A stretch of DNA of 64,000 nucleotides from contig DIET01000014.1 in the NCBI GenBank assembly GCA_002418765.1, positions 48,376-112,375 of the forward strand, written 5' to 3'. Source of the stretch: Peptococcaceae bacterium UBA5767 (GTDB lineage Bacteria; Bacillota; TC1; UBA5767). The translations under genes were made by a program, and so were the position numbers. Positions within the stretch are counted from its first letter, which is position 1; each line of letters starts with the position of its first letter. Under the pieces are notes generated by a model. The model had not been told where the DNA came from. It saw only the letters and a program-made list of their open reading frames with translations, and made no database searches. Below, in pieces: positions 11,310 through 64,000 of this stretch.

Positions 11310-13022
11310 ATGCAATCCTCAAAGCTTATCATACCAACGCTCAAAGAAACACCTGCAGATGCTGAGATCATCAGCCATCAGCTTCTTCTTAGAGCGGGTT
11401 TCATCAAAAAACAAGCGCAAGGAATTTATACATATCTTCCATTAGGATGGAAGGTAATGAAAAAGATTTCAGATATTGTGCGCATAGAAATGAACAAACG
11501 AGATGCACAAGAGATTATGATGCCCATTATTCAACCAGCGGAGTTATGGCAAGAAAGTGGGCGTTGGCATGTATATGGCAAAGAATTGATGCGTTTAACG
11601 GATCGTCATGAAAACGATTTTTGCCTAGGGCCCACACATGAAGAAGTTGTTACTGATGTAATAAGAAGCTTTGTCAATTCCTATAAACAGTTACCTGTCA
11701 ATCTATATCAGATTCAAAACAAATACCGAGATGAGAGAAGACCACGTTTTGGACTGATTCGAAGCAGAGAGTTTCTGATGAAAGATGGGTATTCCTTCGA
11801 CCGAGATGAAGCCGGACTGGACAAATCATACCAAGCGATGTATGAAGCCTATTCAGCAATTTTTACTCGCTGCGGGCTGTCCTATAGAGCGGTAGAAGCT
11901 GATTCAGGTGCGATTGGAGGAAGCAATACACATGAGTTTATGGTTTTGGCGGATTCAGGTGAAGCAGCCATCGTTTTTTGTGAACACTGTGATTATTCAG
12001 CCAATATCGAAAAGGCAAAAATGGATCTTTCTTATCAAGATCATGAACCAATGGATGTTTTAGAAAAGGTATTGACTCCGAATCAAAAAACCATCGTGGA
12101 TGTCTCTACCTATTTGCAGCGTGATCCAAAAAAATCCATCAAGGCATTATTGTACAAAGCGAGATATGAAGACCGTCAGGAAATAATAGTCGCTTTTGTA
12201 CGTGGTGACCGCGAGGGTAATGAGATCAAAATTCAAAATAGTTTGGGTGCCTTGTCTATCGATATGGATATAGATGAACAAGAAATACTGGATCTGGGTA
12301 TTCATCGAGGTTATATCGGCCCAATCAAGCTTGCCAAGGTCAAGATCGTTCTGGATGAAGAGATTATGCGATTACGGAATCTAGTATGTGGCGCCAATGA
12401 GGATGATCATCATTATATTAATGTCAATTATGACAGAGATTTTCAGTGTGATCTCATTGCTGATATTAAGGAAGTACGAGAAGGTGATTTATGCCCCATT
12501 TGTCGTTCGCCTCTGTCTTCTGCTCGGGGTACTGAAGTAGGTCAAGTCTTCAAACTCGGAACCAAGTACTCTCAATCGATGCATGCTACTTTTTTAGATG
12601 AAAACGGAAAAGCTCAGCCTTTGGTGATGGGCTGCTATGGTATCGGCATAAGTAGAACCATGCAAGCCTGCGTAGAGCAGAATCATGATGAACGGGGTAT
12701 GATATGGCCGGTATCGATTGCACCATTCGAAGTTGTTATTTTGCCGGCAGTTCATAAAAATATTGAGCAGATGAATATGGCCAGAGACCTGTATCATGAA
12801 ATGCAAGAAATGGGCATTGATATATTGCTTGATGATACACCCGAACGTACAGGTGTGAAATTCGCCAATAGTGAGCTCATAGGATATCCTATTCGCATTA
12901 CTGTTGGCAAGTTGATAGAGCAGGGAAAAGTGGAAATTACTATACGCAAGTCCATGGAAACCACGGAAGTCTCCATTGCAGAGGTTAGCGAGAAAGTAAA
13001 AGAATTATTGGGTACAATATAA
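11310..13022 (+). CDS. proS: proline--tRNA ligase (bacterial type with editing insertion)
   Basis: Class II aaRS motifs (YQIQNKYRDERRPRFGLIRSREFLMKD, GCYGIGISR). 570 aa length fits the INS-domain form. Confidence 0.95.
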   Translation: MQSSKLIIPTLKETPADAEIISHQLLLRAGFIKKQAQGIYTYLPLGWKVMKKISDIVRIEMNKRDAQEIMMPIIQPAELWQESGRWHVYGKELMRLTDRHENDFCLGPTHEEVVTDVIRSFVNSYKQLPVNLYQIQNKYRDERRPRFGLIRSREFLMKDGYSFDRDEAGLDKSYQAMYEAYSAIFTRCGLSYRAVEADSGAIGGSNTHEFMVLADSGEAAIVFCEHCDYSANIEKAKMDLSYQDHEPMDVLEKVLTPNQKTIVDVSTYLQRDPKKSIKALLYKARYEDRQEIIVAFVRGDREGNEIKIQNSLGALSIDMDIDEQEILDLGIHRGYIGPIKLAKVKIVLDEEIMRLRNLVCGANEDDHHYINVNYDRDFQCDLIADIKEVREGDLCPICRSPLSSARGTEVGQVFKLGTKYSQSMHATFLDENGKAQPLVMGCYGIGISRTMQACVEQNHDERGMIWPVSIAPFEVVILPAVHKNIEQMNMARDLYHEMQEMGIDILLDDTPERTGVKFANSELIGYPIRITVGKLIEQGKVEITIRKSMETTEVSIAEVSEKVKELLGTI

Positions 13023-13049
13023 AAATTTAGGAGGATTTCTTCCTTCTTA

Positions 13050-16000
13050 ATGATAAGAGGTTCTTCATTGGAAATCAAACGACTGTTGGAACAAGCAGCA
13101 AAGCGAGCACAATTTGATGATGAAACAAAAGAAAAGATTCTGCGTTGGGAGATCATACAAGTATATTTGAGTGAAAAAAAAAGAAGCTTATTACTTTGTG
13201 CTCAACATCAGGATTTGATGAATTACCAAGATATGTTGAGAATATCTCATCAGATAGAACAAATTCTCTTATTGAATCGCGTGAGAATTCTGCCTTTTTT
13301 TATGCTAGACTCTTGGAATGAGTCTAGCGCTGTATTGTTGGCTCAAGTACTTCGTGAAGAAATGGGCGAGAAAGATTTGGTGATAAAAGGAAGTATAGCG
13401 AGCATCATAAGAGTAGATAGAACTCTAAAAATGGGAGTTCATTCCAAATTGGCAATCAAACATTGGGAACAAAAAGGCAAGAGAAAAATATTGGATCAGA
13501 TTTTGGCCACCATGTTGCCCTGGATGGATCGAATGGAGTTTTTTGTTGTTGAAGATACTTCATTCAAAGAAAAAATGATTGATTTGGAAAAAGAAAGACT
13601 GATTTGTTTCCATGAAACAAATCAGTCGACAGATGATTATGCGTGTGAGGTTTCTCTAACAGAGAGAGTCATTCTCGGTCATGATTTTGCTACCATTCCT
13701 CTGAATTTAGAATCCATTCAAGAGGAAGAAAAGTCAGCTGCAATCTATGGAAAAGTAATCAATTTGGAGATTCGAGAGCTGCGTAGCGGACGAATATTGA
13801 TTACATTTGATGTCATAAGCAAGAAGTGTGGTTTGAGTGTAAAGTATTTTCAACCAGAAAATGGCCAGCGAACTGTGTTGTTGGAAAATGGCCAGTTTAT
13901 CAAGGCGCGTGGGTCCATACAACAAGATCGATATAGTCAAGAACTGACTATGCAGGTGAAAGATATTGTTTTGGTGGAAGAAGCGAAACGCAAAGATTCT
14001 TATGACAAGAAAAGAATTGAATTGCATCTGCATACTACCATGAGCGCACTTGATGGCCTTACCGACATAAAGGAAGCCCTCAACAGAGCGAAAGAGTGGG
14101 GTCATTCTGCTTTGGCGATTACCGATCATGGCGGAGCACAAGCTTTCCCTGCGGCTTTTCAATGGACCAAGAAAGATGGTTCCAATGTCAAAGTAATATA
14201 TGGAATGGAAGCTTACTTTGTGGACGATTCTTATGAAGAGGGATTGACTAAAAAACCTTATCATATGATTATTCTTGTAAAATCAACCAAAGGATTTCAA
14301 AATCTATATCAGTTGATCACCAGTTCGAATTTGCGCCATTTCTATCGCAAACCACGTGTTATGAAAAGTGAATTGGATTCCTTGAGAGAAGGGTTGATCA
14401 TTGGTAGTGCATGTGAAGCAGGCGAGCTTTACCAAAGTATACTGCATCACAAGAGCGATGAAGAAATCGAAAACATAGCGAAATACTATGACTATTTGGA
14501 AGTACAGCCTATCGGAAACAATGCGTTTCTGATTCGAGAAGGCTGGATTGAGAATGAAGAAGTATTAAAAGAATTGAATCGAAGGATTGTATTGTTGGGC
14601 AAGAAACTGGGAATTCCTGTTGTCGCGACAGGTGATGTGCATTTTTTGGATCCTGATGATGAAATATATCGTAAAATCATTCAAACAGGACAAGGGTACA
14701 AAGATACTACCCAACCTCCGCTTTTTTACCGAACTACGGAAGAAATGCTTGCAGAATTTTCTTACTTAAATAAGGAACTTGCGTATGAAATTGTTGTAGA
14801 GAATACACATCATATAGCCAATTTGATCGATGATAATCTGGTCCCCATACAAACGAAACTGCATACACCGAAAATGGATGGTGCGGATGTTGAAATCAAA
14901 GATACATGTGTCACTAGAGCCAAAGAACTATATGGCGATCCTTTGCCAAGTATCGTTGAAAATCGACTAAATCGCGAACTTGAGTCCATCATCAACAATG
15001 GATTTGCCGTCCTCTATCTGATTGCAGAAAAACTAGTTAAGAAATCCAATGAAGATGGCTATCTGGTTGGTTCAAGGGGATCTGTGGGATCTTCATTTGT
15101 CGCTACTCTTTTGGGTATCACCGAGGTCAATCCATTGGCCCCTCATTACATATGCAGTACCTGTTATTACAATGAATTCATATTGGATGGTTCCATTGGC
15201 AGTGGTGCCGATCTACCACAAAAGGACTGTCCAAATTGTGGTATGCCAATGATCAAGGATGGACATGAAATCCCTTTTGAGACGTTTTTAGGATTTGATG
15301 GAGATAAGATTCCAGACATAGATTTGAATTTCTCAGGAGATTATCAGTCAACCATTCATAAATATACAGAAGTTTTGTTTGGCAAAGATCATGTTTTTAA
15401 AGCAGGTACCATTGCTACCATTGCGGAAAAAACTGCCTATGGTTTTAGTAAAAAATATTTAGAAGAGCAAGGTGAGCATGCCTATCGTTCAGCTCAACTG
15501 GCGGCTTTGGCACATGGATGCACTGGCGTGAAGCGAACCACAGGGCAACATCCTGGCGGTATTATTGTTCTTCCGCGTGGTGAGAACGTCAATTGTTTCA
15601 CTCCGTTGCAACGACCTGCTGAAGATACTGAATCTGATATTGTAACCAGTCATTTCGATTATCATTCCATAGATTCTAGTTTGGTAAAACTTGATTTGCT
15701 GGGGCATGATGATCCTACTGTAATCAAAATGCTTGAAGATTTGACCCATACAAATGCCAAGAGCATCTCATTGGACGATGAAAAGACCTTAAGCTTATTT
15801 CGTTCATCGGAAGCATTGCATTTAGACCCAAAAATATTGGATATGGACATTGGTTCCTTGGGTATTCCTGAATTTGGTACCAAATTTGTGCGCCAGATGC
15901 TTCAAGACACCAGGCCCATTGCCTTTTCTGAACTTGTTCGTATTTCAGGATTTTCTCATGGTACTGATGTATGGTTGAATAATGCACAGGAATTGATCTT

Positions 16001-16736
16001 TGCGAAAATTGCCAAATTATCTGAGGCAATTTCGACACGAGATGACATTATGTCGTACCTGTTGCACAAGAATCTTCCACCGCTTATTGCGTTTCGTATT
16101 ATGGAAGATGTGAGAAAGGGTAAAGGGCTTAAAGAAGAATATGAGGAGGAGATGCGCAAGTTCCATGTGCCTGATTGGTATATAGATTCCTGCAAAAAAA
16201 TAAAGTATATGTTCCCTAAGGCACATGCCGTAGCCTATGTTACCATGGCTTTTCGCATTGCTTGGTATAAAATTAATCATCCAGAGGCATTCTATGCGAC
16301 CTATTTTACGGTTCGTGCGGATGAATTTGATCTTGACATTATTCGCAAAGGGCCAGAGAATATACAGCATGAATTGAAAAAGCTTAGGGCTTTGTCACGA
16401 CAGACGGCCAGGGAACGAAGCATCGAAACGATTTTAGAGATCGCCTTGGAAATGTATGCACGGGGTATCCATTTGATGCCATTAAACTTATATACATCCA
16501 AGGCAGCAGAATTTACTGTATGTGACGGGGCGCTTTTGCCACCATTTAATACGATACCAGGTTTGGGTATAAAAGCAGCCAAAAATATTGTTGTCATGCG
16601 TGAAGAGAAACCAATCATATCTGTAGAAGATTTACGTATTCGTGCAAGGCTGAGTAATACGGTCATTGAACTGATGAGAGATTTGGGAATGCTTACGGAT
16701 TTGCCAGAGAGTGAACAGATGAGTTTGTTTGCTTGA
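13050..16736 (+). CDS. polC: PolC-type DNA polymerase III alpha subunit, lacking the internal 3'-5' exonuclease domain
   Basis: OB fold, PHP motifs (ELHLHTTMSALDG, AITDHGG), Cys4 module (CSTC...CPNCG), PDIDLNFSG, GQHPGGIIV, KKIKYMFPKAHAVAYV and C-terminal QMSLFA all fit PolC. Only about 9 residues occupy the site where the ~200 aa DEDDh exonuclease normally sits. An alternative TTG start exists at 13068. Confidence 0.9.
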   Translation: MIRGSSLEIKRLLEQAAKRAQFDDETKEKILRWEIIQVYLSEKKRSLLLCAQHQDLMNYQDMLRISHQIEQILLLNRVRILPFFMLDSWNESSAVLLAQVLREEMGEKDLVIKGSIASIIRVDRTLKMGVHSKLAIKHWEQKGKRKILDQILATMLPWMDRMEFFVVEDTSFKEKMIDLEKERLICFHETNQSTDDYACEVSLTERVILGHDFATIPLNLESIQEEEKSAAIYGKVINLEIRELRSGRILITFDVISKKCGLSVKYFQPENGQRTVLLENGQFIKARGSIQQDRYSQELTMQVKDIVLVEEAKRKDSYDKKRIELHLHTTMSALDGLTDIKEALNRAKEWGHSALAITDHGGAQAFPAAFQWTKKDGSNVKVIYGMEAYFVDDSYEEGLTKKPYHMIILVKSTKGFQNLYQLITSSNLRHFYRKPRVMKSELDSLREGLIIGSACEAGELYQSILHHKSDEEIENIAKYYDYLEVQPIGNNAFLIREGWIENEEVLKELNRRIVLLGKKLGIPVVATGDVHFLDPDDEIYRKIIQTGQGYKDTTQPPLFYRTTEEMLAEFSYLNKELAYEIVVENTHHIANLIDDNLVPIQTKLHTPKMDGADVEIKDTCVTRAKELYGDPLPSIVENRLNRELESIINNGFAVLYLIAEKLVKKSNEDGYLVGSRGSVGSSFVATLLGITEVNPLAPHYICSTCYYNEFILDGSIGSGADLPQKDCPNCGMPMIKDGHEIPFETFLGFDGDKIPDIDLNFSGDYQSTIHKYTEVLFGKDHVFKAGTIATIAEKTAYGFSKKYLEEQGEHAYRSAQLAALAHGCTGVKRTTGQHPGGIIVLPRGENVNCFTPLQRPAEDTESDIVTSHFDYHSIDSSLVKLDLLGHDDPTVIKMLEDLTHTNAKSISLDDEKTLSLFRSSEALHLDPKILDMDIGSLGIPEFGTKFVRQMLQDTRPIAFSELVRISGFSHGTDVWLNNAQELIFAKIAKLSEAISTRDDIMSYLLHKNLPPLIAFRIMEDVRKGKGLKEEYEEEMRKFHVPDWYIDSCKKIKYMFPKAHAVAYVTMAFRIAWYKINHPEAFYATYFTVRADEFDLDIIRKGPENIQHELKKLRALSRQTARERSIETILEIALEMYARGIHLMPLNLYTSKAAEFTVCDGALLPPFNTIPGLGIKAAKNIVVMREEKPIISVEDLRIRARLSNTVIELMRDLGMLTDLPESEQMSLFA

Positions 16737-16773: not shown

Positions 16774-16817
16774 AAAAAGTATGAAAGCAAGTCCGTGGAC
16801 TTGCTTTCATACTTTTT
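16774..16817. terminator. bidirectional intrinsic terminator between convergent polC and oxidoreductase beta gene
   Basis: AAAAAGTATGAAAGCAAGTC / GACTTGCTTTCATACTTTTT perfect long hairpin flanked by A-run and T-run. Confidence 0.85.
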
Positions 16818-17673
16818 ATGATGGATAGTCGATCAATGATTGAACGTCTTTTTGATTTCTTTTTCTATGAATCAATATCGTCTTATTCTCTTTATAAATT
16901 GGCAAACATGCTTCAAAGGTTGGACGACCAATATGGCGATAGAGAATGCCCAGTGGATAAGGATCATGCTCCTGGGCTTTGGTAAAGGCGACTGCCAAGG
17001 AATCCTTTTTATACGCCTGCTCAAGCATGTAAGTATGCTTCTTATACCAAGCGAAATTGTTGATTTTATTAAAACTGGGGCAGGGTTGCATGACATCAAT
17101 AAGAGCATAACCTGGATGCAGGATTGCTTTTTGTATGAGTTCACTCAAATGTTCCTGATAGCCTGAAAAGCCTCTGGCGATGAATGTCGCTCCCAATGAA
17201 AGCGCAACCAATAATGGATTGAATGGTTCGTTAATGACTCCTTGTTCCTGCAATGGGGTGGTAAATCCTATTGATGAAGTGGGCGAAGCTTGTCCCTTTG
17301 TTAATCCATAAACCATATTGTTGTGTACAATGTGGGTTATGTCAATATTTCTTCTGATATTGTGAATCAGATGGTTTCCGCCTTCGCCATACATATCACC
17401 GTCACCGCCTTCTGCAATGACTGTCAACTCAGGATTAACCGATTTTATGGCACAAGCCACTGGTAATGCTCTGCCATGCAGACCATTAAAATAATTGGTC
17501 TCCAAATATTGAGGCATTTTTGCTGCTTGTCCTATGCCGGATGAAACAACCAATTGGTGCGGGTCCATATGAAGCTTCGAGAGTGCATCAATCAGTGCCT
17601 CTCGGATAGCATAGTTGCCACAACCAGGGCACCAGGCCACATTTTCATCATTACGATATTCATATGTGCTCAT
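16816..17673 (-). CDS. 2-oxoacid:ferredoxin oxidoreductase, beta (TPP-binding) subunit
   Basis: N-terminal WCPGCGNY motif, GDGDMYGEGGNH TPP-binding motif. Translationally coupled to the upstream alpha gene (overlap). Substrate (2-oxoglutarate or other) cannot be assigned from sequence. Confidence 0.85.
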   Translation of the reverse strand: MSTYEYRNDENVAWCPGCGNYAIREALIDALSKLHMDPHQLVVSSGIGQAAKMPQYLETNYFNGLHGRALPVACAIKSVNPELTVIAEGGDGDMYGEGGNHLIHNIRRNIDITHIVHNNMVYGLTKGQASPTSSIGFTTPLQEQGVINEPFNPLLVALSLGATFIARGFSGYQEHLSELIQKAILHPGYALIDVMQPCPSFNKINNFAWYKKHTYMLEQAYKKDSLAVAFTKAQEHDPYPLGILYRHIGRPTFEACLPIYKENKTILIHRKRNQKDVQSLIDYPS

Positions 17674-19370
17674 TGCATCACCTCATTCCATTTTTGCAGG
17701 ATATCTTCTAGGGAGAATGGCGCACCATTGTATTTGTTGATACGATGCGTGACAGTGATATTGAGTTCAACTTTCAAAAGATTCGCCAGTTGCCCGGTCG
17801 CATTATTTTCTATACATATGATTGTCTTTTCTTTCAATTCTCTTTGTAATCGCTCAGGAAGGGGAAGCAATTGTTTCAGATGAATATAGGTCACATCATC
17901 AAGTGTGGTAGAAGCCAACCATTCTTTGATAACACCATAGGTTGAACCCCAGGAAATAATAATGTGCTTGGCATTGGTGTTGCCAATCCATTCTTCTGTC
18001 ACATAATCGTTTAGAATACTTTCTCGTTTCTTTAAGCGTTTTTCGTTCATCGCAACTCGTACTGTGAAGCTTTCCGTAATGAGTCCTTCTTCGGTATGCT
18101 CATCACTGTCAACCTTTACAAACCCCTCACCCCAACCGGGAATGCCTCGTGGTGATATACCATCTTCGGAAAGACAGTAACGCTGGTAATCGGATTCGCT
18201 TTTCACAACGAAGGATTCAGGTTCTGCCGGTAAAGTCATCTTTTTCATCAGTCCAAGAGAATCCGTATAGAATTGATCTGTCAGTAAAAAAACTGGAACC
18301 TGATATCGATCAGCCAACGTGAATGCCCTTTGAGTCAAAAGAACACCATCTTCAAGCGAGCCCGGTGATAAAATGATTCGCGGAAACTCGCCATGCCCTG
18401 CGTATTGAACCAAAGACAAATCTGCTTGTTCAGTACGGGTAGGGAGGCCAGTGGCTGGCCCGGGCCTTTGAGCAACGTGGATGACACAAGGTGTTTCTGT
18501 CATACCTGATAAAGAAATGGCCTCTTGCATGAGTGCCAAACCACCCCCTGATGTCGTTGCCAGCCCTCTTGCTCCTGCATACCATGCACCCAACACCATA
18601 TTGAGTGCTGCTATTTCGTCCTCGGATTGTTCCACAAGGACATCAAATTGCTGACCTTTCTGACTAAGGTATACCAATACTCCTGTAGAAGGGGACATGG
18701 GGTAGGAAGCAACATAGTTGCATCCCCCTGCCAATGCACCGATACCGACGGCTTCAGTACCGTCTATAACTTTATATTCGGAAGGATCATACAAGATAGG
18801 GCTTTCAATATCATCTCCGATACTAGGGATATTTTCGTGAGCAAATGTGTAACCCAGTTGCAGAGCATTCTCATTGTTGGCGACGATATCTTGACCTTTG
18901 GTTTTGAATTTGTCCCTCAATTGTTGTTTGAGGAATTCAATATTCAATTCTAGAACGGCTGTTAGCACTCCAACAACAACTGTATTTTCAAACAATTTTC
19001 CTCCTGATGCCTTCGCTAGTTCCGAGAAAGGAATGGGATAGACCGTCAGTCCTCGTTTTAATATTTGAGGATGTGCCAGAAACTCTTTTTCACCGAGAAT
19101 GATGGTATGAGGCTGAATTCGTTGCCACAAGCGTTCTATGGCATGATCGTTTAACAGAAACAGCAAGTCAATCGTCTCTTCATAAGCAAAACTTTGTTGT
19201 GATGTGATTCTGATTTCTGTAGTATTGTTTCCTCCACGAATACGACTCATGATATCTTTGGATGAACAGACGAAATGGTTTTTTGCGATCGCGCGTACAA
19301 GAAACTCTTCAATGGTTTGGATACCTTGTCCAGCTTCACCTGAAATAACAATGCAAAATGAATTTTTCAT
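17670..19370 (-). CDS. 2-oxoacid:ferredoxin oxidoreductase, fused gamma-alpha subunit
   Basis: N-terminal gamma-type domain (ISGEAGQGIQT) followed by alpha-type pyrimidine-binding domain (GTEAVGIGALAGGCNYVASYPMSPST). 566 aa. Confidence 0.85.
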   Translation of the reverse strand: MKNSFCIVISGEAGQGIQTIEEFLVRAIAKNHFVCSSKDIMSRIRGGNNTTEIRITSQQSFAYEETIDLLFLLNDHAIERLWQRIQPHTIILGEKEFLAHPQILKRGLTVYPIPFSELAKASGGKLFENTVVVGVLTAVLELNIEFLKQQLRDKFKTKGQDIVANNENALQLGYTFAHENIPSIGDDIESPILYDPSEYKVIDGTEAVGIGALAGGCNYVASYPMSPSTGVLVYLSQKGQQFDVLVEQSEDEIAALNMVLGAWYAGARGLATTSGGGLALMQEAISLSGMTETPCVIHVAQRPGPATGLPTRTEQADLSLVQYAGHGEFPRIILSPGSLEDGVLLTQRAFTLADRYQVPVFLLTDQFYTDSLGLMKKMTLPAEPESFVVKSESDYQRYCLSEDGISPRGIPGWGEGFVKVDSDEHTEEGLITESFTVRVAMNEKRLKKRESILNDYVTEEWIGNTNAKHIIISWGSTYGVIKEWLASTTLDDVTYIHLKQLLPLPERLQRELKEKTIICIENNATGQLANLLKVELNITVTHRINKYNGAPFSLEDILQKWNEVMQ

Positions 19371-19497
19371 GAAAACCTCCTTACTAAGACTAGGTGTGCT
19401 TTTCCATTTGATATTGAAATTTAAAGATTCAAAACGAGGTTGAAAAATAGCAACTGTTGCTCTCTTGCATTATAATAGTATTGGAAAGAGAGGCGAT

Positions 19498-20208
19498 ATG
19501 AAAAAAATTGGAGTGGTTATATTGGTTATGATATTCTTGACAGGTTGCCAAACATCTTCTGTGGCAGTGGATACCAGTGCTTTGGAAAAGGAGTTGTCTG
19601 ACGCATACGTATCTATTGCAGAATTATCGACTCAAATCGAAGATTTAAATCATGACATCTCTGAAATGCAGACTCAGCTAGAAGCAGTACAAGTGGCGCC
19701 AAGCAACTCGTTATCGTTGCTTTCTCAGGCAGCACAAACGGTACAATGGTTAGGAGAAGAAAATTATACTTCTTTATCCACACTAGTGCATCCCACGAAA
19801 GGAGTCCGGTTTTCACCTTATGGTTATGTGGACATAAACAACCATTTGATTTTTACTGGCGCGGAAGTGGCTGGTTTTTCCACCAACACACAAATATATA
19901 ATTGGGGAAACTATGATGGGACAGGAGACCCCATTGCGTTGACATTTGATGATTTCTATACGGATTTCATTTTCGATCAAGATTTTACACAGGCCCCATA
20001 CTTGGGAAACAATACGATTATCGGTACCGGGAACACTCTAATCAATATGGCTACAGCCTATCCAGATGGTGAATTCATTGAATTTCATTATGATGAGCTA
20101 GATGCACAGTATATGGGTATGGATTGGACAAGTTTACGATTGGTCTTTGAGTTATATCAAGGGGAATATCTGCTCATTGGTATTATTTCCGATCAGTGGA
20201 CCATTTGA
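19498..20208 (+). CDS. lipoprotein of unknown function
   Basis: MKKIGVVILVMIFLTGCQ signal peptide with lipobox LTGC. AAAGAGAGG RBS before ATG 19498. Coiled-coil-like N-terminal stretch, then an aromatic/Gly-rich domain I cannot place in a family. Confidence 0.6.
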   Translation: MKKIGVVILVMIFLTGCQTSSVAVDTSALEKELSDAYVSIAELSTQIEDLNHDISEMQTQLEAVQVAPSNSLSLLSQAAQTVQWLGEENYTSLSTLVHPTKGVRFSPYGYVDINNHLIFTGAEVAGFSTNTQIYNWGNYDGTGDPIALTFDDFYTDFIFDQDFTQAPYLGNNTIIGTGNTLINMATAYPDGEFIEFHYDELDAQYMGMDWTSLRLVFELYQGEYLLIGIISDQWTI

Positions 20209-20227
20209 TACAGAACCTTTTTTTCGA

Positions 20228-20830
20228 CTATTCTGGATAAATGCGCATGCGCTCGGATAAAGGCAGAAATGTTTTTTCTTCCGGTTCTGCAACAATTCCT
20301 CCAAAAGGCATTTGGGAAATAAGTTTCCAGTTTCTTGGTATGTTGTACTGCAAGGTGACATATTCATTGATGATTTCAGTGTAGTGTTGTAATGAAGCTC
20401 CTATGTTAACGCTTGATAGCGCTGTCCAGATGATATACTGCAATATGCCAGAAGATTGCATCGACCAATCTGGGTAATTGTGTGCATATTTGGGATATTT
20501 GGTTTGCAGACCAGTGACTGTTTCTTGGTCTTCAAAAAAAAGAATCGTTCCATATCCAGCGTTGAATTCATCAATCTTGAGGGCTGTTTTTGGGAATTTT
20601 TCAGGTTTAATCATTTCTTGAAGCAATGTTTTCAACGTCTCCCAGAATTTGTTGTGATGTTCTTGTAATAAGACAACAATTCTGCCTGATTGAGAATTGT
20701 TAGCGGAAGGACAGTATTTTAAAGCGTTTTCGACGAGCAATAAAAATTCCTCTTGAGACAATGGGAGCTTGTTTTCAATCGCATAACGAGAACGACGATG
20801 GATGACATCTTTAAGGTAACGAGACTGCAT
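20228..20830 (-). CDS. nitroreductase family protein
   Basis: HRRSRYAI... N-terminal motif, about 200 aa, overall resemblance to FMN nitroreductase fold proteins. Assignment from memory of family consensus only. Confidence 0.65.
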   Translation of the reverse strand: MQSRYLKDVIHRRSRYAIENKLPLSQEEFLLLVENALKYCPSANNSQSGRIVVLLQEHHNKFWETLKTLLQEMIKPEKFPKTALKIDEFNAGYGTILFFEDQETVTGLQTKYPKYAHNYPDWSMQSSGILQYIIWTALSSVNIGASLQHYTEIINEYVTLQYNIPRNWKLISQMPFGGIVAEPEEKTFLPLSERMRIYPE

Positions 20831-21011
20831 AAAAACCTCCTTGATTTCTTTCAGTCTATCATAATTCCCGCATCTTGTATAAGTGTAATCCTTTGTGGTA
20901 TTACGATATCCATACTATGATTTGGCTCATTAGTGATAATAATTTCAATTCGTAGTGTCATTCGTGTATACTTATATCAATCACATGAAAAATTAAATTC
21001 AGGAGGATGCT

Positions 21012-21290
21012 ATGTGGACACATGTTGAGGGAATGGAAGGAAGAAAACTGAAATTGTATGCGTTATCAACTTGCGGATGGTGCAAAAAAACAAAAGATCT
21101 GCTTGGTGAAAATGGTGTTGCCTATGATTATGTTTTTGTAGATTTGTTGTCATCAGCTGACAAAGATTCTGCCATTGCCGAAATGGAAAAAATGGTTAGT
21201 GATTTGGCCTTTCCACTACTGGTAATTGACGAAGAGTTATCGATTCAAGGTTATAAACCAGAAGATATTCAGGTTGCTATTCATGGATAA
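21012..21290 (+). CDS. glutaredoxin-like protein (YruB/NrdH-like, CGWC active site)
   Basis: KLKLYALSTCGWCKKTKDLL... thioredoxin-fold CxxC motif, 92 aa, AGGAGGA RBS. Confidence 0.72.
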   Translation: MWTHVEGMEGRKLKLYALSTCGWCKKTKDLLGENGVAYDYVFVDLLSSADKDSAIAEMEKMVSDLAFPLLVIDEELSIQGYKPEDIQVAIHG

Positions 21291-21780
21291 ATCAGATAAA
21301 GAGAGAGTCAATGAGTTCTATCAAAGTATCCAGGCGGAGATTGAGGGAAAGGGCTACTATTTAAATCCTGACCGTTCATTTGTGGATGAGTTGTTGCTTG
21401 GCCTTTTGCAAAACAACGATCGCTATGGCTATCCTTCATGCCCTTGTCGTCTATCTGCCGGGATAAAAGAGCAGGATATGGATTTGATTTGTCCTTGTGA
21501 TTACAGAGATGATGACCTGGCTGAATTCGGAGCATGTTATTGTGCTCTGTATGTGGATGAAGATGTATGGGCAGGATTGAAGACGATTTCTTCAATCCCA
21601 GAACGAAGAAAAAAGAGAACCGATAGTCAATCCATGGATCTCTTGGATTCTTCTAATCCATCCTTGGCTTACCCAGTCTATCGCTGCAAGGTTTGTGGCT
21701 ATTTGATGGCCAAAGATCAGCCACCTTCTAAATGTCCCATTTGTGGCGTTAGCAAAGAGAGATTTGAACGATTCATGTAG
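21283..21780 (+). CDS. ferredoxin:thioredoxin reductase catalytic-subunit-like protein fused to a C-terminal rubredoxin-type zinc/iron ribbon
   Basis: CPC...CPC...CYC cysteine pattern (SCPCRLS, LICPCDY, GACYCALYV) typical of FTR catalytic chain. C-terminus has CKVCG...CPICG. ATG 21283 overlaps the upstream stop (ATGGATAA), so the listed 21226 start is rejected. Confidence 0.75.
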   Translation: MDKSDKERVNEFYQSIQAEIEGKGYYLNPDRSFVDELLLGLLQNNDRYGYPSCPCRLSAGIKEQDMDLICPCDYRDDDLAEFGACYCALYVDEDVWAGLKTISSIPERRKKRTDSQSMDLLDSSNPSLAYPVYRCKVCGYLMAKDQPPSKCPICGVSKERFERFM

Positions 21781-21790
21781 GAGGAAAACA

Positions 21791-22282
21791 ATGGATATAT
21801 TGAAAACAGCGATGGGTATGGAACAAATGAGCATCAAGTATTATCAAGAGTTGGGTGAAAAGGTAGGGTTAGCAGCTGTTCGTGGAGCAACCAAGCTTTT
21901 GGTTGAGGAAGAAGAGAAACATGTTCAATTTATACGAGAGTATTTGGCTGACAAGAATGCCTGTTTAGAAGATTCTGATGAGAGTTTTGATATTGCTGAT
22001 ATATTTTTTCAATTTAAAAATGAAATCAGGAGTCCATTAAGCATTGACAATTCCATTCTTACTTTGTATCAAAAAGGGATAGAAATGGAACAAAAGAGCA
22101 TCGACTTATATGAAGGCTTGCTTGGCTCGATGGATGCTGAAAATGATCGTGCGATTATTAAGAAACTGATACTCGAAGAAAAGAAACATAAAGATTTTTT
22201 AGAAGGCCTTTTGGATTTGACCAGAACCAGTGAAGAGTGGATCGAGGATCCAGAGTTTAACCATATTGGCGAAAACTATTAA
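21791..22282 (+). CDS. ferritin-like di-iron protein (rubrerythrin-type four-helix bundle without rubredoxin domain)
   Basis: Two E...ExxH pairs (MEQMS...EEEEKH and MEQKS...EEKKHKDF). AGGAGGA RBS before ATG 21791, 10 nt after the preceding stop. Confidence 0.7.
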   Translation: MDILKTAMGMEQMSIKYYQELGEKVGLAAVRGATKLLVEEEEKHVQFIREYLADKNACLEDSDESFDIADIFFQFKNEIRSPLSIDNSILTLYQKGIEMEQKSIDLYEGLLGSMDAENDRAIIKKLILEEKKHKDFLEGLLDLTRTSEEWIEDPEFNHIGENY

Positions 22283-47826: not shown

Positions 47827-47857
47827 TGTAATGATCAACGATACAAGGGAGGATAAG

Positions 47858-49123
47858 ATGGATTTATTTGATGCAATCCGGGAAAAGGAAATGGATAAAA
47901 ATGCTCCATTGGCCAGCAGGATGACACCAAGAAATTTTGGTGAATATGTCGGGCAAGAACATATCCTAGGCAAAGATCGACTCCTTCGGCGCTGCATCGA
48001 TACTGACCAATTGACCTCTATTATTTTATATGGGCCTCCAGGCACAGGAAAAACGGCGCTAGCCAGATTGATAGCCAAAACAACGCAGGCACAATTCAGA
48101 ACATTAAATGCGGTCACATCAGGAATCAAAGATATCAAGGATGTCATTTTAGAAGCATCGGATAACCTAGGATTACTGTCGCAAAAGACAATTTTATTCA
48201 TTGACGAGATTCATCGTTTCAATAAAACCCAACAAGATGCCTTGCTTCCTCATGTAGAGAAGGGATTGGTTACTCTTATAGGCGCCACGACGGAAAATCC
48301 ATATGTGGAGGTCAACAGGGCACTCTTATCGCGTTCAACCATTTATCGACTCAATCCATTGACACCAGAAAATATCCACGCCATCTTACTCCATGCGATG
48401 AAGGACAAAGAACGCGGTTATGGGCATGTAAACATCCAAATGACCTCCACAGCCTCCAACCATCTGTGCACCATGTGTAATGGAGACGCGAGGATGGCTT
48501 TAAATGCATTAGAACTGGCAGTCCTAAGTACCAAGCCTAATCAGCAGAATATAATCCATATAGACCTTCCTATTGCTTCAGAATCAATACAACGTCGTTC
48601 TATCCAATATGACAAACAAGGAGACAATCATTTTGATGTCATTTCAGCTTTCATCAAGAGCATGCGGGCATCAAAACCTGATGCGGCTTTACATTATATG
48701 ATCCGCATGATTGAGGCAGGGGAGGACCCCAAGTACATCACCCGGAGAATGATGATTTTTGCGGGAGAAGATATTGGACTTCAAGATCCACAAGCAATGC
48801 AGATAGCTACCAGCTGTGACTATGCTTTGAAGAATTTGGGTATGCCCGAGGCTTATTATCCCTTGGTAGAAGCTTGTCTTTATCTCAGTCTAGCACCCAA
48901 GTCAAATGCTTGTAAGGTGGCGCTTGGGGAGGCCAAAAAGGACATTTTAAACCATGATATTGGAGATGTTCCTCTTTTTTTGCAGGATCAAAGCTTTGAA
49001 AAACCACAAACGGATTGTCAAGAAGAATCACTTTACAAGTATCCTCCAGATCATCATTATGTCACAGATCAGGAATATATGCCCAAACCGTTGATAGGAA
49101 AAGTATACTATCGAGAGAAGTAA
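47858..49123 (+). CDS. rarA: replication-associated recombination protein A (AAA+ ATPase)
   Basis: LYGPPGTGKTALA Walker A, LFIDEIHRFNK Walker B/sensor, MgsA C-terminal domain. GGGAGGA RBS before ATG 47858. Confidence 0.9.
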   Translation: MDLFDAIREKEMDKNAPLASRMTPRNFGEYVGQEHILGKDRLLRRCIDTDQLTSIILYGPPGTGKTALARLIAKTTQAQFRTLNAVTSGIKDIKDVILEASDNLGLLSQKTILFIDEIHRFNKTQQDALLPHVEKGLVTLIGATTENPYVEVNRALLSRSTIYRLNPLTPENIHAILLHAMKDKERGYGHVNIQMTSTASNHLCTMCNGDARMALNALELAVLSTKPNQQNIIHIDLPIASESIQRRSIQYDKQGDNHFDVISAFIKSMRASKPDAALHYMIRMIEAGEDPKYITRRMMIFAGEDIGLQDPQAMQIATSCDYALKNLGMPEAYYPLVEACLYLSLAPKSNACKVALGEAKKDILNHDIGDVPLFLQDQSFEKPQTDCQEESLYKYPPDHHYVTDQEYMPKPLIGKVYYREK

Positions 49124-51992: not shown

Positions 51993-52067
51993 ATCTTTTA
52001 ATAATTTTACATAATATATATTATCGGACTTTTGTGTTTTGATTATTTTCTGAAAGGTTGGTCTCCT

Positions 52068-52430
52068 ATGGTTTTGGCAATGCAATTCGGCCTCATACTG
52101 TTGATATGGCAAATCGGTGAATGGATCTCGCTTACGTTTCATTTGGTCGTCCCGGGTTCTATTGTCGGTATGTTGCTATTACTTTTTCTTTTACAAACTG
52201 GAATTTTAAAAGAAAAGTATATTCGGGATGCTGGTGATATGTTTCTAAAAATCATATCCTTTTTTTTCATCCCTTCCGGTGTGGCTATTTTGGCACATAG
52301 GGACCTCATAGCAAATATTTGGATATATATGCTTATAGCACTCATTGTCAGCGTTGTTTTGGTCATGTTGGTTTCCGGACGTGTGACCCAGTTTCTTATC
52401 GATGTAAAAGGTGAGTCGCATGATGTATGA
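52068..52430 (+). CDS. lrgA: CidA/LrgA family holin-like protein
   Basis: About 120 aa, four TM segments, followed by an overlapping lrgB. Confidence 0.8.
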   Translation: MVLAMQFGLILLIWQIGEWISLTFHLVVPGSIVGMLLLLFLLQTGILKEKYIRDAGDMFLKIISFFFIPSGVAILAHRDLIANIWIYMLIALIVSVVLVMLVSGRVTQFLIDVKGESHDV

Positions 52431-53139
52431 TTTCAACTCGTTGGTCGCTCTTTTGCTTGGTATCTTGTTGACAATATTGCTGTATGTAATTGGTCTGAAG
52501 TTATACCAACGCTATCACATTGATCTGTTTACGCCCAATATTTTTGGTATTGTATCCCTGGTAATCATCATGAGCATTTTTCGCATCGATTATGCATGGT
52601 ATGAGCCTAGTGCTACGGCCATTAACTTTTTTCTTAAACCCGCCGTTGTGGTATTGGCGCTTCCTCTCTATCGCCGTCTTCCCCTACTTATGAAGAATAA
52701 ATTGCCTATTCTTCTAGGAATATTTTCTGGTGTCTTGGTATCTAGTTTCAGCATAGTATTTTTTTCATTTCTGGGAAATTTTGATATGATTACCATGTTA
52801 TCCCTATTGCCCAAATCCATAACAACACCCATGGGTATTGAGGTTTCTCAAAGCATGCAGGCTATCCCATCCATCACCGTTCTGGCCATTCTCATTACTG
52901 GCGTGGTAGGTACGGTTCTGGCCAAGACCATTTTGTCTCTGGGAAACATTCATCATCCCATTGCCAAAGGTGTAGCCATTGGGACAAGTGCTCATGTGCT
53001 GGGCACTACCAAAGCGTTGGAAATCGGTGAAGTAGAAGGTGCCATTTCCGGTTTATCGTTGGCTCTGGCCGGCATTATTTCCGTCTTTTACCTACCATTT
53101 TTGGCTTATCTAATACGGATGATTTATAAAATGATATAG
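52420..53139 (+). CDS. lrgB: LrgB family protein
   Basis: About 240 aa polytopic membrane protein, KSITTPMGIEVS motif, overlaps lrgA 3' end. Confidence 0.85.
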   Translation: MMYDFNSLVALLLGILLTILLYVIGLKLYQRYHIDLFTPNIFGIVSLVIIMSIFRIDYAWYEPSATAINFFLKPAVVVLALPLYRRLPLLMKNKLPILLGIFSGVLVSSFSIVFFSFLGNFDMITMLSLLPKSITTPMGIEVSQSMQAIPSITVLAILITGVVGTVLAKTILSLGNIHHPIAKGVAIGTSAHVLGTTKALEIGEVEGAISGLSLALAGIISVFYLPFLAYLIRMIYKMI

Positions 53140-53170
53140 CAATGGGGATGATTTTTTCCATCCCCATTGC
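53139..53170. terminator. bidirectional terminator between lrgB and ABC ATPase gene
   Basis: GCAATGGGGATG-attttttc-CATCCCCATTGC. Confidence 0.8.
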
Positions 53171-53196
53171 TTAGCATATTCCCTTGTCTTTCGTAT

Positions 53197-53967
53197 TTAA
53201 AGCACCGATTCTCGTTCATCTTTCAACTTGCAGTAACAAGGCGCTAGATCCTGCCAAATTTCCCCTTCTTCTTTCTCTTTGGTCATAAAGTCCTTGGTAA
53301 TATTCCCATCCTTGATCTCAATGACGCGGTCTGATTTGGCTGCAATATGATCATTGTGAGTAACAATGAGAAAAGATGTTTGCAACTTCTCATTTAAATC
53401 CCTCATCAATGCATATACCTGTTCTGTTGTATCGCTGTCTAAATTTCCTGTAGGTTCATCTGCTAAGATCAACGATGGCTCATTGATCAGGGCTCTGGCA
53501 ATAGCCACACGTTGCTGTTGCCCGCCAGAAATGTCATTGGCATTGTTGTTGATCCGATCCTTTAGTCCCACCATCTCCAATAATTCTTTGGCTCTTTCTA
53601 TCCTATTCTTATTGGCAGTACCATCTTTGATCCATGTTGGGATCAAAACATTTTCTAAAACAGAAAAATCGGGTAACAAATGATGGAACTGAAAAATAAA
53701 ACCTAGATTACTGTTGCGAAAATAAGCCAGTTCTTCATCTTGCATAGCCGAAATCTTCTGCCCATTAAACTTGACCTCTCCTTCGGTTGGCTTGTCAAGC
53801 GCCCCTAAAATATTGAGCAGTGTAGTTTTTCCACTCCCAGAATAACCAATCAAACTTGCAAACTCTCCTTGCTGAATGGATAAATCTATTCCTTTTAGAA
53901 CTTCTGTCTTCACAACGGTCCCATAAGTTTTTTTGATGTTGCATGCTTGTAATAAACAATTCGACAT
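53197..53967 (-). CDS. ABC transporter ATP-binding protein (MacB/LolD/YknY type)
   Basis: GYSGSGKTT Walker [16 protein letters not shown] signature, [12 protein letters not shown] Walker B. About 30 extra C-terminal residues. Confidence 0.9.
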
Positions 53968-56876: not shown

Positions 56877-56892
56877 AGAAACATTTGTTTGT
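56877..56892. promoter_or_regulatory. degenerate LexA box 3 overlapping the lexA -35
   Basis: AGAAACATTTGTTTGT (AAAC-N4-GTTT palindrome). Confidence 0.5.
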
Positions 56893-56917
56893 ATAAAAAA
56901 ATCTTGTGTGTTATAAT
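56889..56917 (+). promoter_or_regulatory. lexA promoter
   Basis: TTGTAT-17 nt-TATAAT with TGt extended -10. Confidence 0.6.
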
Positions 56918-56936
56918 TCTGACAGGAGGGTTGATT

Positions 56937-57575
56937 ATGATGGATTTAACCAAAAGGCAGCAGCAGATTTATACAATGATTCAACAATTTATTCTAGAAA
57001 ATGCTTATCCGCCCACAGTCCGCGAAATCGCAGAGGTTGTTGGTCTGAACTCCATATCGACCGTTCATAGGCATTTAAAAAACTTGGAATCATTGGGATG
57101 CATTCGCAGGAATCCTGCCATGTCTAGAGCCATAGAAATTGTAGATAACGCATCATTTGACTCTCATAGCCAACACCATTCCTGGAATGACATGCAGATG
57201 GTCAACGTTCCCCTATTGGGCCGAGTAACAGCTGGTATCCCTATTGAAGCCATAGAAAATATACAAGAAACCTATCCCCTACCTTTGTCCTTGATTGGCA
57301 GTAAGGATGCTTACATTCTTGAAGTGGTTGGTGAATCCATGATTGAAGCAGGTATCCATGATGGAGACTTGGCTATCGTTGAAAAACGAAACACAGCCAG
57401 TAATGGTGATATTGTCGTAGCCATGCTCGAAAGCAATGAAGCTACCATCAAGAGGTTTTATCGGGAGAATAACCGGTATCGACTGCAACCAGAGAATTCC
57501 ACCATGGAACCCATTTATACAGATCATGTGGATATCTTGGGAAAAGTCATTGGACTATATCGCAATATACACTGA
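56937..57575 (+). CDS. lexA: LexA repressor
   Basis: LTKRQQQIYTMIQQFI...PPTVREIAE wHTH, AG cleavage site (VTAGIP), Ser/Lys dyad (VGESM ... IKRF). AGGAGGG RBS before ATG 56937. Confidence 0.93.
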   Translation: MMDLTKRQQQIYTMIQQFILENAYPPTVREIAEVVGLNSISTVHRHLKNLESLGCIRRNPAMSRAIEIVDNASFDSHSQHHSWNDMQMVNVPLLGRVTAGIPIEAIENIQETYPLPLSLIGSKDAYILEVVGESMIEAGIHDGDLAIVEKRNTASNGDIVVAMLESNEATIKRFYRENNRYRLQPENSTMEPIYTDHVDILGKVIGLYRNIH

Positions 57576-62386: not shown

Positions 62387-64000
62387 CTATACTTCTTCGG
62401 TTTTTTCCTGCACTGCAATATCTTCGGTTTCTTCCTGCACTGCAATTTTTTCTGGTTCTTCCTGCACTGCGATTTTTTCTGGTTCTATTGTCTCATTTTT
62501 AACAGATTTTGCTTCTTTTGCTTCTTCTTCTTTTTTTAAATCAAGCAATTCACCGAACATATCGCCCAGTGTTAAAGGCACATCCTCTTCTGTGGAATAC
62601 TGGAATTCCTGTTTGTCAACTTTGGGTGTTATTTTCTTCTTTGGCTTGGGTTTTACAGGCATTTCCGGTTTTTCTAATGTCGCTTTGATGGACAACCCGA
62701 TTTTCTTGTCATCAGGATTAACCTTAATGATTTTTACTTCAATCGTATCTCCTGGCTTGACAACATCTTCCACTTTTTCCACACGTTCATAAGCCAACTC
62801 GGAAATATGCAATAATCCCTCAAATCCTGACTCAATTTCTACAAATGCGCCAAAGTCAGTGGTTCTAAGAACTTTGCCGTGAACCAATGACCCTTCAGGA
62901 TGATTGGCCAATGCTACTGCCCAAGGATCTTCTTGAAGTGCTTTCAAACTCAATGCAATTTTTTCTTTGTCGCGATCTATTGATAAAACCTTGACTTCAA
63001 TAACATCACCAATATTAACAGCATCTTCTGGTTTGTCGACTTTATTCCAACCCATTTCGGAGATATGAAGCAGCCCGTCGATGCCGCCCAAATCAACGAA
63101 TGCACCGAATTTGGCTGTTCTACAAACAGTGCCCTGAATGACGGTGCCTTCTGCCAACTTCTCCCAGGTTTCTTCCTTCATACTTGAGCGTTCTTCTGCC
63201 AAAATGTCTTTTTGCGACAAAACAATACGATTTTTCTTTTTATCCAACTCGATAATCCGAACGCGCAATTTTTGTCCGACATATTTTGAAAGATCATTGA
63301 CGAACCCGATTTCCAGATGCGAGGCCGGAACAAATCCTCTCAACCCATCGAGATCGACGACGACACCACCCTTTACTTCTTCTGTTACCTCTACTTCAAA
63401 CTCCGTTTTGTCCTCGAAGCTCTGTGTCAATTCATCAAACTTCTTGGCCATTTCACGCTTTTGTTTTTTCTTTTCGTTATCATATTTTTTTCTGGTAATC
63501 GCTTTTTTTGAAAGAACAGGAGCTCCTTCCCGGTTACTTTTCTTCACCAGCATCAACTCAAGCTCATCACCAGCTTTTAGCTCATCAAAGTTATCCAGTT
63601 CTTTGGCCGCCACAACACCTTCTCTTTTGGCACCAATGTCAACCAGAATCTCATCTTGACCTACTTTTACAACAATGGCGTTTAAGATATCACCAACCTT
63701 ATACGTTTCATCGCTGCTAGGTGTAAAGATATCAGCCATCGTTAATTCACCTGAATTATCCTCCACCGTTTCATTCTTCAACTCTTCCATAGCTACAACA
63801 ACCTCCTTAATTATCCAGTCTGGTGTAGATGCACCAGCTGTTACCCCAACAGTTTGCATACCTTTGAACCATTCGCTTTTTAATTCTTCAGGTTTCTCGA
63901 TATGATATACTGGGATATTTTTTTCTCTAATGATAGAGAATAATTTATTGGTATTGGCGCTGTGTTTCCCGCCAATGACAATCATAATATCAGAAATTTC
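62387..64000 (-). CDS. ispH: bifunctional 4-hydroxy-3-methylbut-2-enyl diphosphate reductase / ribosomal protein S1-like fusion, 3' portion (5' end beyond window)
   Basis: The frame stays open to nt 64000 ([20 protein letters not shown]... is the IspH C-terminus). It is followed by four S1 domains ([32 protein letters not shown] etc.) and an acidic repeat tail. Confidence 0.88.
62390..62486 (-). repeat. 27-bp in-frame tandem repeat (about 3.3 copies) at the 3' end of ispH-rpsA
   Basis: The TTCCTGCACTGC(A/G)AT core recurs at 62405, 62432 and 62459 (plus strand). Encodes [32 protein letters not shown]. Confidence 0.85.

Follow-up and report, generated by a model that had tools for sequence, protein, structure and literature searches.

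Exo-less PolCs and the polC gene of Peptococcaceae bacterium UBA5767

About 94% of PolC-type DNA polymerase III alpha subunits carry, as a hallmark, a DEDDh (DnaQ-like) exonuclease integrated in their PHP domain. The Exo insertion is absent from 6% of PolCs, and from 16% of those in PolC+DnaE1 systems; save for one extra copy in Thermotogae, these exo-less forms belong to Clostridia and Negativicutes, where PolC is paired with DnaE1 (Timinskas et al., NAR 2014; PMC3919608). We analysed a stretch of 64,000 nucleotides (nt), hereafter the window, from Peptococcaceae bacterium UBA5767 (contig DIET01000014.1, positions 48,376 to 112,375 of the forward strand, assembly GCA_002418765.1), and describe here its polC gene, whose product is almost certainly a genuine, intact, exo-less PolC of this already known class. 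The architecture has been known since 2013-14, and the window protein is an ordinary further case of it. The integral DEDDh domain is missing from it, and its membership of the PolC family stands, because the literature counts exo-less PolCs as PolCs (PMC3919608).

The protein shares with the exo-less PolCs of Clostridia and Negativicutes the order of the N-terminal domain, OB fold, PHP, Pol3 core and helix-hairpin-helix (HhH) module, the lack of Exo, a conserved PHP site and a consensus-like clamp motif, and shows no architectural difference from them; the clade that it forms with four close homologues (P0002-P0005) comes from uncultured lineages. Full-length PolCs such as those of B. subtilis, S. 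aureus and E. faecium (9QPC) are orthologous replicases with 41-43% identity and the same domains outside the exonuclease, whereas the window protein lacks their DEDDh domain of ~198 residues. The Geobacillus (Gka) PolC structures 3F2B/3F2C/3F2D have the same fold and a deletion at the same loop, but there the deletion is artificial, the native enzyme keeping its DnaQ domain, while that in the window is natural. More distant are Thermus PolIII alpha and M. tuberculosis (Mtb) DnaE1 (5LEW/7PU7), which belong to the other branch of the C family (~18-20% identity, template-modelling (TM) score ~0.65) and resemble the window protein in having a complete nine-ligand PHP site, in lacking an integral DEDDh domain and in joining PHP strands 3 and 4 by a short loop. 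The OB fold is C-terminal in DnaE1 polymerases and N-terminal in the window PolC, and exonuclease activity has been shown for DnaE1 enzymes, whereas that of the window PolC PHP domain is predicted from sequence.

Identity and domain organization of the window PolC

The gene is an uninterrupted open reading frame (ORF) with an ATG start, coding for 1228 residues. Its product scores 1478.6 bits against the NCBIfam PolC equivalog NF001688 (cut-off 873) and 1382 bits against TIGR01405 (cut-off 1043.45), every NCBIfam DnaE model remains far under its own cut-off, and the Geobacillus PolC chain 3F2B is matched at E=0. Pfam searches (E<=1) recover PHP (324-480), DNA_pol3_alpha, DNA_pol3_finger and HHH_6. 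All elements of the PolC domain order are present, from the N-terminal domain and the OB fold that precedes PHP to the Pol3 core, the HhH module and the C-terminal clamp motif. The features are as follows (window coordinates, strand, description and basis):

13050..16736 (stop codon included), +, polC, exo-less PolC-type DNA polymerase III alpha subunit (ORF, NF001688, TIGR01405, 3F2B)
13030..13035, +, Shine-Dalgarno-like AGGAGG, 14 nt 5' of the ATG (direct sequence reading)
13050..13664, +, N-terminal domain, residues ~1-205, of low conservation (alignment with other PolC N-termini; no Pfam match)
13728..13976, +, OB fold, residues ~227-309, N-terminal to PHP (weak tRNA_anti-codon match, 232-308)
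14013..14228, +, N-terminal part of PHP, residues 322-393, with ligands H326, H328, D335, H360 and E387 (Pfam PHP 324-480)
14229..14255, +, junction linker SYEEGLTKK, residues 394-402, in place of the DnaQ-like exonuclease of ~195-200 residues (alignments, spacing, model)
14256..14729, +, C-terminal part of PHP, residues 403-560, with ligands H405, C455, D529 and H531 (alignments)
14895..16154, +, polymerase core (palm, thumb and fingers), residues 616-1035 (DNA_pol3_alpha, DNA_pol3_finger)
15153..15239, +, Cys4 zinc module, C702, C705, C727 and C730 (all four Cys invariant in alignments)
15312-15338, +, palm motif PDIDLNFSG (sequence)
16464..16709, +, tandem HhH DNA-binding module, residues 1139-1220 (HHH_6 at 3.3e-08)
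16716..16730, +, predicted beta-clamp-binding motif QMSLF, residues 1223-1227 (consensus match)

A first-pass annotation made from the sequence alone had described the ORF as a PolC from end to end, and both the two PolC models and the positions of the motifs it quoted agree with this: ELHLHTTMSALDG lies at residues 324-336, AITDHGG at 356-362, CSTC at 702-705, CPNCG at 727-731, PDIDLNFSG at 755-763, GQHPGGIIV at 832-840, KAHAVAYV at 1057-1064 and QMSLFA at 1223-1228. An alignment of 120 homologues has ~190 invariant columns, including palm residues D756, D758 and D887, the four cysteines of the zinc module and Q1223. The three aspartates are putative catalytic residues by alignment to Gka PolC. 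The clamp motif resembles the PolC consensus QL[S/D]LF (PMC3919608), with L1226 and F1227 conserved in >=90% of the homologues. A promoter and terminator scan around polC gave background level only.

Absence of the exonuclease domain

Several comparisons place the loss of ~195-200 residues between PHP strands 3 and 4, at nt 14229..14255. In a 12-sequence PolC alignment (four long forms, the query and seven other short forms), the exo block of ~195 residues (columns ~451-648) carries FDLETTG, HNAxFD and HHRAxxDA in the four long sequences and is cleanly missing from the query and the seven other short ones. The spacing from E387 to H405 is 17 residues, against 210-220 in exo-bearing PolCs. The NCBIfam PolC match falls into two stretches, query residues 401-1227 corresponding to profile positions 612-1444, and the E. 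faecium PolC 9QPC aligns as chain residues 360-433 and 632-804, leaving 198 chain residues without counterpart. No RNase_T (PF00929) match was found in the ORF by Pfam at E<=1. All six frames of the 64-kb window were scanned with a hidden Markov model (HMM) built from the exo block, and the best value was E=0.4; a degenerate or frameshifted remnant of the domain was therefore ruled out.

The structure agrees with the alignments. An AlphaFold model of residues 215-1228 (mean predicted local distance difference test score (pLDDT) 88.9, predicted TM score (pTM) 0.79) shows the junction as a short loop (pLDDT ~71) that connects two confidently predicted beta-strands (model residues 167-177 and 190-196), and its OB fold is a five-strand beta unit (model residues 13-95) that superposes on 3F2B, a structure starting at the OB domain. 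Over the whole model the agreement with 3F2B is close (TM 0.94/0.96, root-mean-square deviation 2.0 A, 51% identity). Compared with full-length E. faecium PolC, TMq is 0.93 and TMt 0.78, indicating that the latter carries one extra domain. The exo domain of Gka PolC, which in full-length PolC sits between PHP strands 3 and 4, was removed for crystallisation (PMC12592400), and in the 3F2B chain the engineered GSGSG linker is offset from the natural junction by no more than a few residues. The predicted fold of the window protein is thus that of the engineered exo-deleted Geobacillus PolC.

The first-pass annotation had anticipated much of this: it placed the SYEEGLTKK junction at exactly the coordinates given by the 12-sequence alignment, and the exo motifs that it could not find fall in the block gapped there, in line with the empty RNase_T search. 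It was also right to describe the crystallised Geobacillus enzyme as an exo-deleted construct, as the GSGSG linker and PMC12592400 show. Alignment with a known full-length PolC, of the kind that it proposed, leaves the 198 E. faecium residues unmatched at the junction, and its reading of a clean in-frame excision of a domain, as opposed to a pseudogene, is borne out by the frame, the locus, the alignment and the model together.

Distribution and repeated loss

Related PolCs were surveyed in a set of 200, made of the best 120 database matches and of 80 GTDB species loci among the matches listed; 110 of them are exo-less. Short forms account for 89 of the 120 best matches, including PolCs from Heliophilum, Heliorestis, Desulfosporosinus, Peptococcaceae, Syntrophomonadaceae, Zhaonella and Propionispora, and for 21 of the 80 GTDB loci among the matches listed, which include Cuneatibacter, Aminipila and Lentihominibacter as well as metagenome-assembled genomes (MAGs) of Anaerovoracaceae, Lachnospiraceae and Oscillospiraceae. 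The nearest named PolCs are from a 'Clostridia bacterium' (66% identity), Zhaonella formicivorans, heliobacteria, Desulfosporosinus and Propionispora, which is compatible with a host in Clostridia or Negativicutes, the closest relatives of the protein being Clostridia-class Bacillota. The short form that the first-pass annotation thought worth looking for in relatives is therefore common among them, and the rarity that it implied finds no support in this count or in the 6% of PolCs already reported (PMC3919608).

A neighbour-joining tree of 198 PolCs (998 columns), with exo state mapped by Fitch parsimony, requires nine changes of exo state, and 8-10 across 50 bootstraps; the tree is a crude one. 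The junction linkers vary in both length and sequence between short-form clades (12-28 residues, with outliers of 33 and 52), and certain short PolCs have a long form, not another short one, as the closer relative. One such case is the short PolC of Cuneatibacter (L006), which shares 68% identity with the exo-bearing PolC of Sellimonas (L078) and only ~50% with that of the window. Repeated independent loss appears to be the simplest reading of these changes.

Two sequences of the survey deserve separate mention. The exo-less PolC of a Lachnospiraceae MAG (L046, 9590-13252) has an unusually long, acidic, proline-rich junction linker of ~50 residues, perhaps a remnant, perhaps a replacement segment. 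The exo-bearing PolC on contig00047 of Desulfosporosinus metallidurans (L069, 3993-8354) shares 81% identity with the Clostridium carboxidivorans PolC, compared with only 56% with the short PolCs that bear the Desulfosporosinus label (L040, P0045, P0038); it could reflect a contaminant contig, horizontal transfer or a second polC copy.

The PHP metal site and the source of proofreading

The nine residues of the PHP metal site are all present in the window PolC (nonad HHDHEHCDH: H326, H328, D335, H360, E387, H405, C455, D529 and H531) and each of them pairs in the alignment with a metal ligand of Taq PolIII alpha; the five from the N-terminal part are invariant in both the 12-sequence and the 120-sequence alignments. 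The eighth ligand is Asp in the query (ATGDVHF) and in Taq (ATNDGHY), whereas it is Asn in the Gka and E. faecium PolCs (ATGNVHY). Using the motif HHDHEH[C/H]DH, taken from PMC12926913 as the criterion for an active PHP, we found the nonad intact in 110 of 110 exo-less PolCs and in 87 of the 88 exo-bearing clostridial PolCs that could be assessed, the sole deviation among these 198 being NHDYEHCDH in one exo-bearing PolC.

The significance of this site is known from other members of the family. In the PHP exonuclease of Mtb DnaE1 nine residues bind three zinc ions and the substitutions D23N and D226N abolish activity, while Gka PolC is stated to have no PHP exonuclease activity because one of its ligands is mutated (PMC5636811). 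In PolC the exo domain is inserted at the loop which, in Mtb DnaE1, runs along the path of the primer (PMC5636811). An active PHP in both PolC and DnaE1 is typical of Clostridia, whereas PolCs of PolC+DnaE3 systems are often inactive at this site (PMC12926913), a difference from the complete nonad of the window protein. In C. thermocellum, the PolC change C669Y, which affects the counterpart of C455, produces a ~30-fold mutator (bioRxiv 10.1101/2021.07.30.454558), which by analogy would indirectly support proofreading by PHP.

We therefore propose that the window PolC proofreads through the trinuclear-metal exonuclease site of its own PHP domain, in the way that Thermus PolIII alpha and Mtb DnaE1 do. 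A DnaE1 partner, reported for all Clostridia and Negativicutes, might add proofreading through its own PHP site. In any PolC with an intact PHP site the DnaQ domain would then be redundant, and this would explain the repeated loss of Exo in these lineages but not in Bacilli. The first-pass annotation had named three possible sources of fidelity, a trans-acting DnaQ-like subunit, the PHP domain and an elevated mutation rate; because all nine ligands are intact we favour the second, whereas the first finds no support in the window or in the flanks of 21 other short polC genes. Judged from sequence, PHP-based proofreading, possibly with a contribution of DnaE1, is the most likely mechanism, with a chance that we would put at even or slightly better. 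A similarly guarded confidence, just on the favourable side, applies to the interpretation as a whole, that is, an orthologous functional PolC of the known exo-less clostridial class with proofreading by PHP. The stricter version, in which the PHP site would be the sole proofreader and the DnaQ insertion would have been shed at least eight separate times in Clostridia through redundancy, is more tentative and falls a little short of an even chance.

Several points weigh against proofreading by PHP. Since the nonad is kept in nearly all exo-bearing clostridial PolCs, its conservation is not specific to exo-less forms, and within Clostridia its integrity does not discriminate between the two (110/110 vs 87/88); the contrast appears only against the Bacilli-type PolCs in the PDB. 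PHP ligand mutants also lower stability (PMC5636811), and the C669Y mutator could reflect structural destabilisation instead of lost catalysis. The loop along the primer path has 29 residues in Mtb DnaE1 and only 17 here, a length that may or may not suffice to guide a primer end. In the literature searched we found neither an assay of an exo-less PolC nor PHP exonuclease activity of any PolC.

Among the alternatives, the one that fares best, although we regard it as unlikely, is that DnaE1, with its own intact PHP proofreader, carries out the bulk of high-fidelity synthesis, leaving PolC a restricted role in which its proofreader is dispensable. This was raised by Timinskas et al., and it fits the occurrence of exo-less PolCs only where DnaE1 is the partner and the existence of some Clostridia with DnaE1 alone (PMC3919608). 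However, the near-consensus clamp motif, catalytic residues, canonical locus and strong conservation of the window PolC are those expected of a main replicase, and the nonad retained by every exo-less form would be needless in an enzyme freed from the fidelity constraint. No dnaE gene is present in the 64-kb window.

Somewhat less probable still is a stand-alone DnaQ/epsilon-like DEDDh exonuclease that would proofread in trans, as epsilon does for DnaE of E. coli. Bacterial proteomes hold on average more than three stand-alone DnaQ homologues, so that candidates are probably encoded elsewhere in this genome, and the exonuclease of B. subtilis PolC can proofread DnaE3 products in trans (PMC12926913, the latter as cited there). 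Against this, no frame of the window has a DEDDh signal (best E=0.4, as above), Pfam scans of the window ORFs contain no RNase_T, and the +-10 kb around polC at 81 loci, 21 other short forms included, are free of stand-alone exo-like ORFs; a DnaQ gene adjoining polC was thus rejected for the window and for these flanks on the basis of Pfam. We also know of no epsilon-binding surface described for PolC, which we count against proofreading in trans.

A third alternative, that no proofreader compensates and the lineage tolerates a higher mutation rate, is very improbable: it has nothing direct in its favour and is merely a logical consequence of DEDDh loss, whereas exo-less PolCs persist with highly conserved sequences across many deep clostridial lineages and their invariant PHP ligands argue for selection on the PHP site.

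Genomic context and authenticity of the gene

That the short form arose as an assembly deletion, a decaying pseudogene or a paralogue has a negligible probability, given that the identical 1228-residue protein occurs on 10 contigs read (NCBI, JGI, ENA and Logan sources; the longest of 402.6 kb), that its frame is uninterrupted, that the four nearest homologues (59-66% identity, 1221-1243 residues) likewise have no exo domain, that the locus is the canonical polC locus of Firmicutes and that the model is confident. The assembly-artefact and pseudogene readings were accordingly ruled out by the frame, the multiple contigs and the short homologues. From this sequence evidence, the gene is the orthologous and presumably functional polC of the organism.

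The locus is assigned as orthologous because of its conserved rpsB...proS-polC gene block. Upstream of polC the order is rpsB-tsf-pyrH-frr-uppS-cdsA-dxr-rseP-ispG-proS, and downstream rimP-nusA-ylxR-L7Ae-infB follows beyond an insertion of ~5.5 kb of redox genes. The directly adjacent upstream gene is:

11310..13022, +, proS (gene list with Pfam)

ispG precedes polC in 17 of 18 other short-form loci. In the window proS stands between the two, resembling the Bacilli-type order rseP-proS-polC, and among the 64 related loci whose upstream sequence is long enough, proS never adjoins polC. On the other side, the redox cluster (16816-22282) breaks the usual adjacency of polC and rimP. It encodes the beta and alpha subunits of a 2-oxoacid:ferredoxin oxidoreductase (minus strand), a nitroreductase, a glutaredoxin, a FeThRed_B/rubredoxin-like protein and a rubrerythrin, together with a 247-residue ORF (19465-20208, +) that has no Pfam match and corresponds to a gene call of 236 residues in a Logan contig.

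Other features of the window

The GC skew is positive before ~52 kb and negative beyond, with the sign change at ~52000-53200, where gene orientation also turns from nearly all plus to mostly minus. This could be a polarity switch of the replication terminus or origin type, or the boundary of an inversion. An ORF at 62387-63985 (-) combines the C-terminal end of LytB/IspH (profile 201-266) with four S1 domains, as in fusions of the IspH-S1 type, and it may in fact begin further upstream than listed. Genes for an MgsA/RarA-type AAA+ ATPase and for LexA are found at 47831-49123 and 56889-57575; both are replication-stress/SOS components and neither is an exonuclease.

Implications for PolC proofreading

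As a discovery the window PolC has small value, its architecture being in the literature since 2013-14 and abundant in public data. What goes beyond the cited papers is the retention of the nonad in 110 of 110 exo-less PolCs and the 8-10 changes of exo state with differing linkers, a combination that, as read from these alignments, is consistent with redundancy between two proofreaders. As a lead it has some value. A PolC that is naturally compact and has its PHP site complete would allow a clean test of whether the PHP domain of a PolC is an exonuclease. If the stricter version of the proposal is true, exo-less PolCs would be natural single-polypeptide PolCs with proofreading in the style of DnaE1, and the full-length PolCs of Clostridia would carry two working proofreaders.

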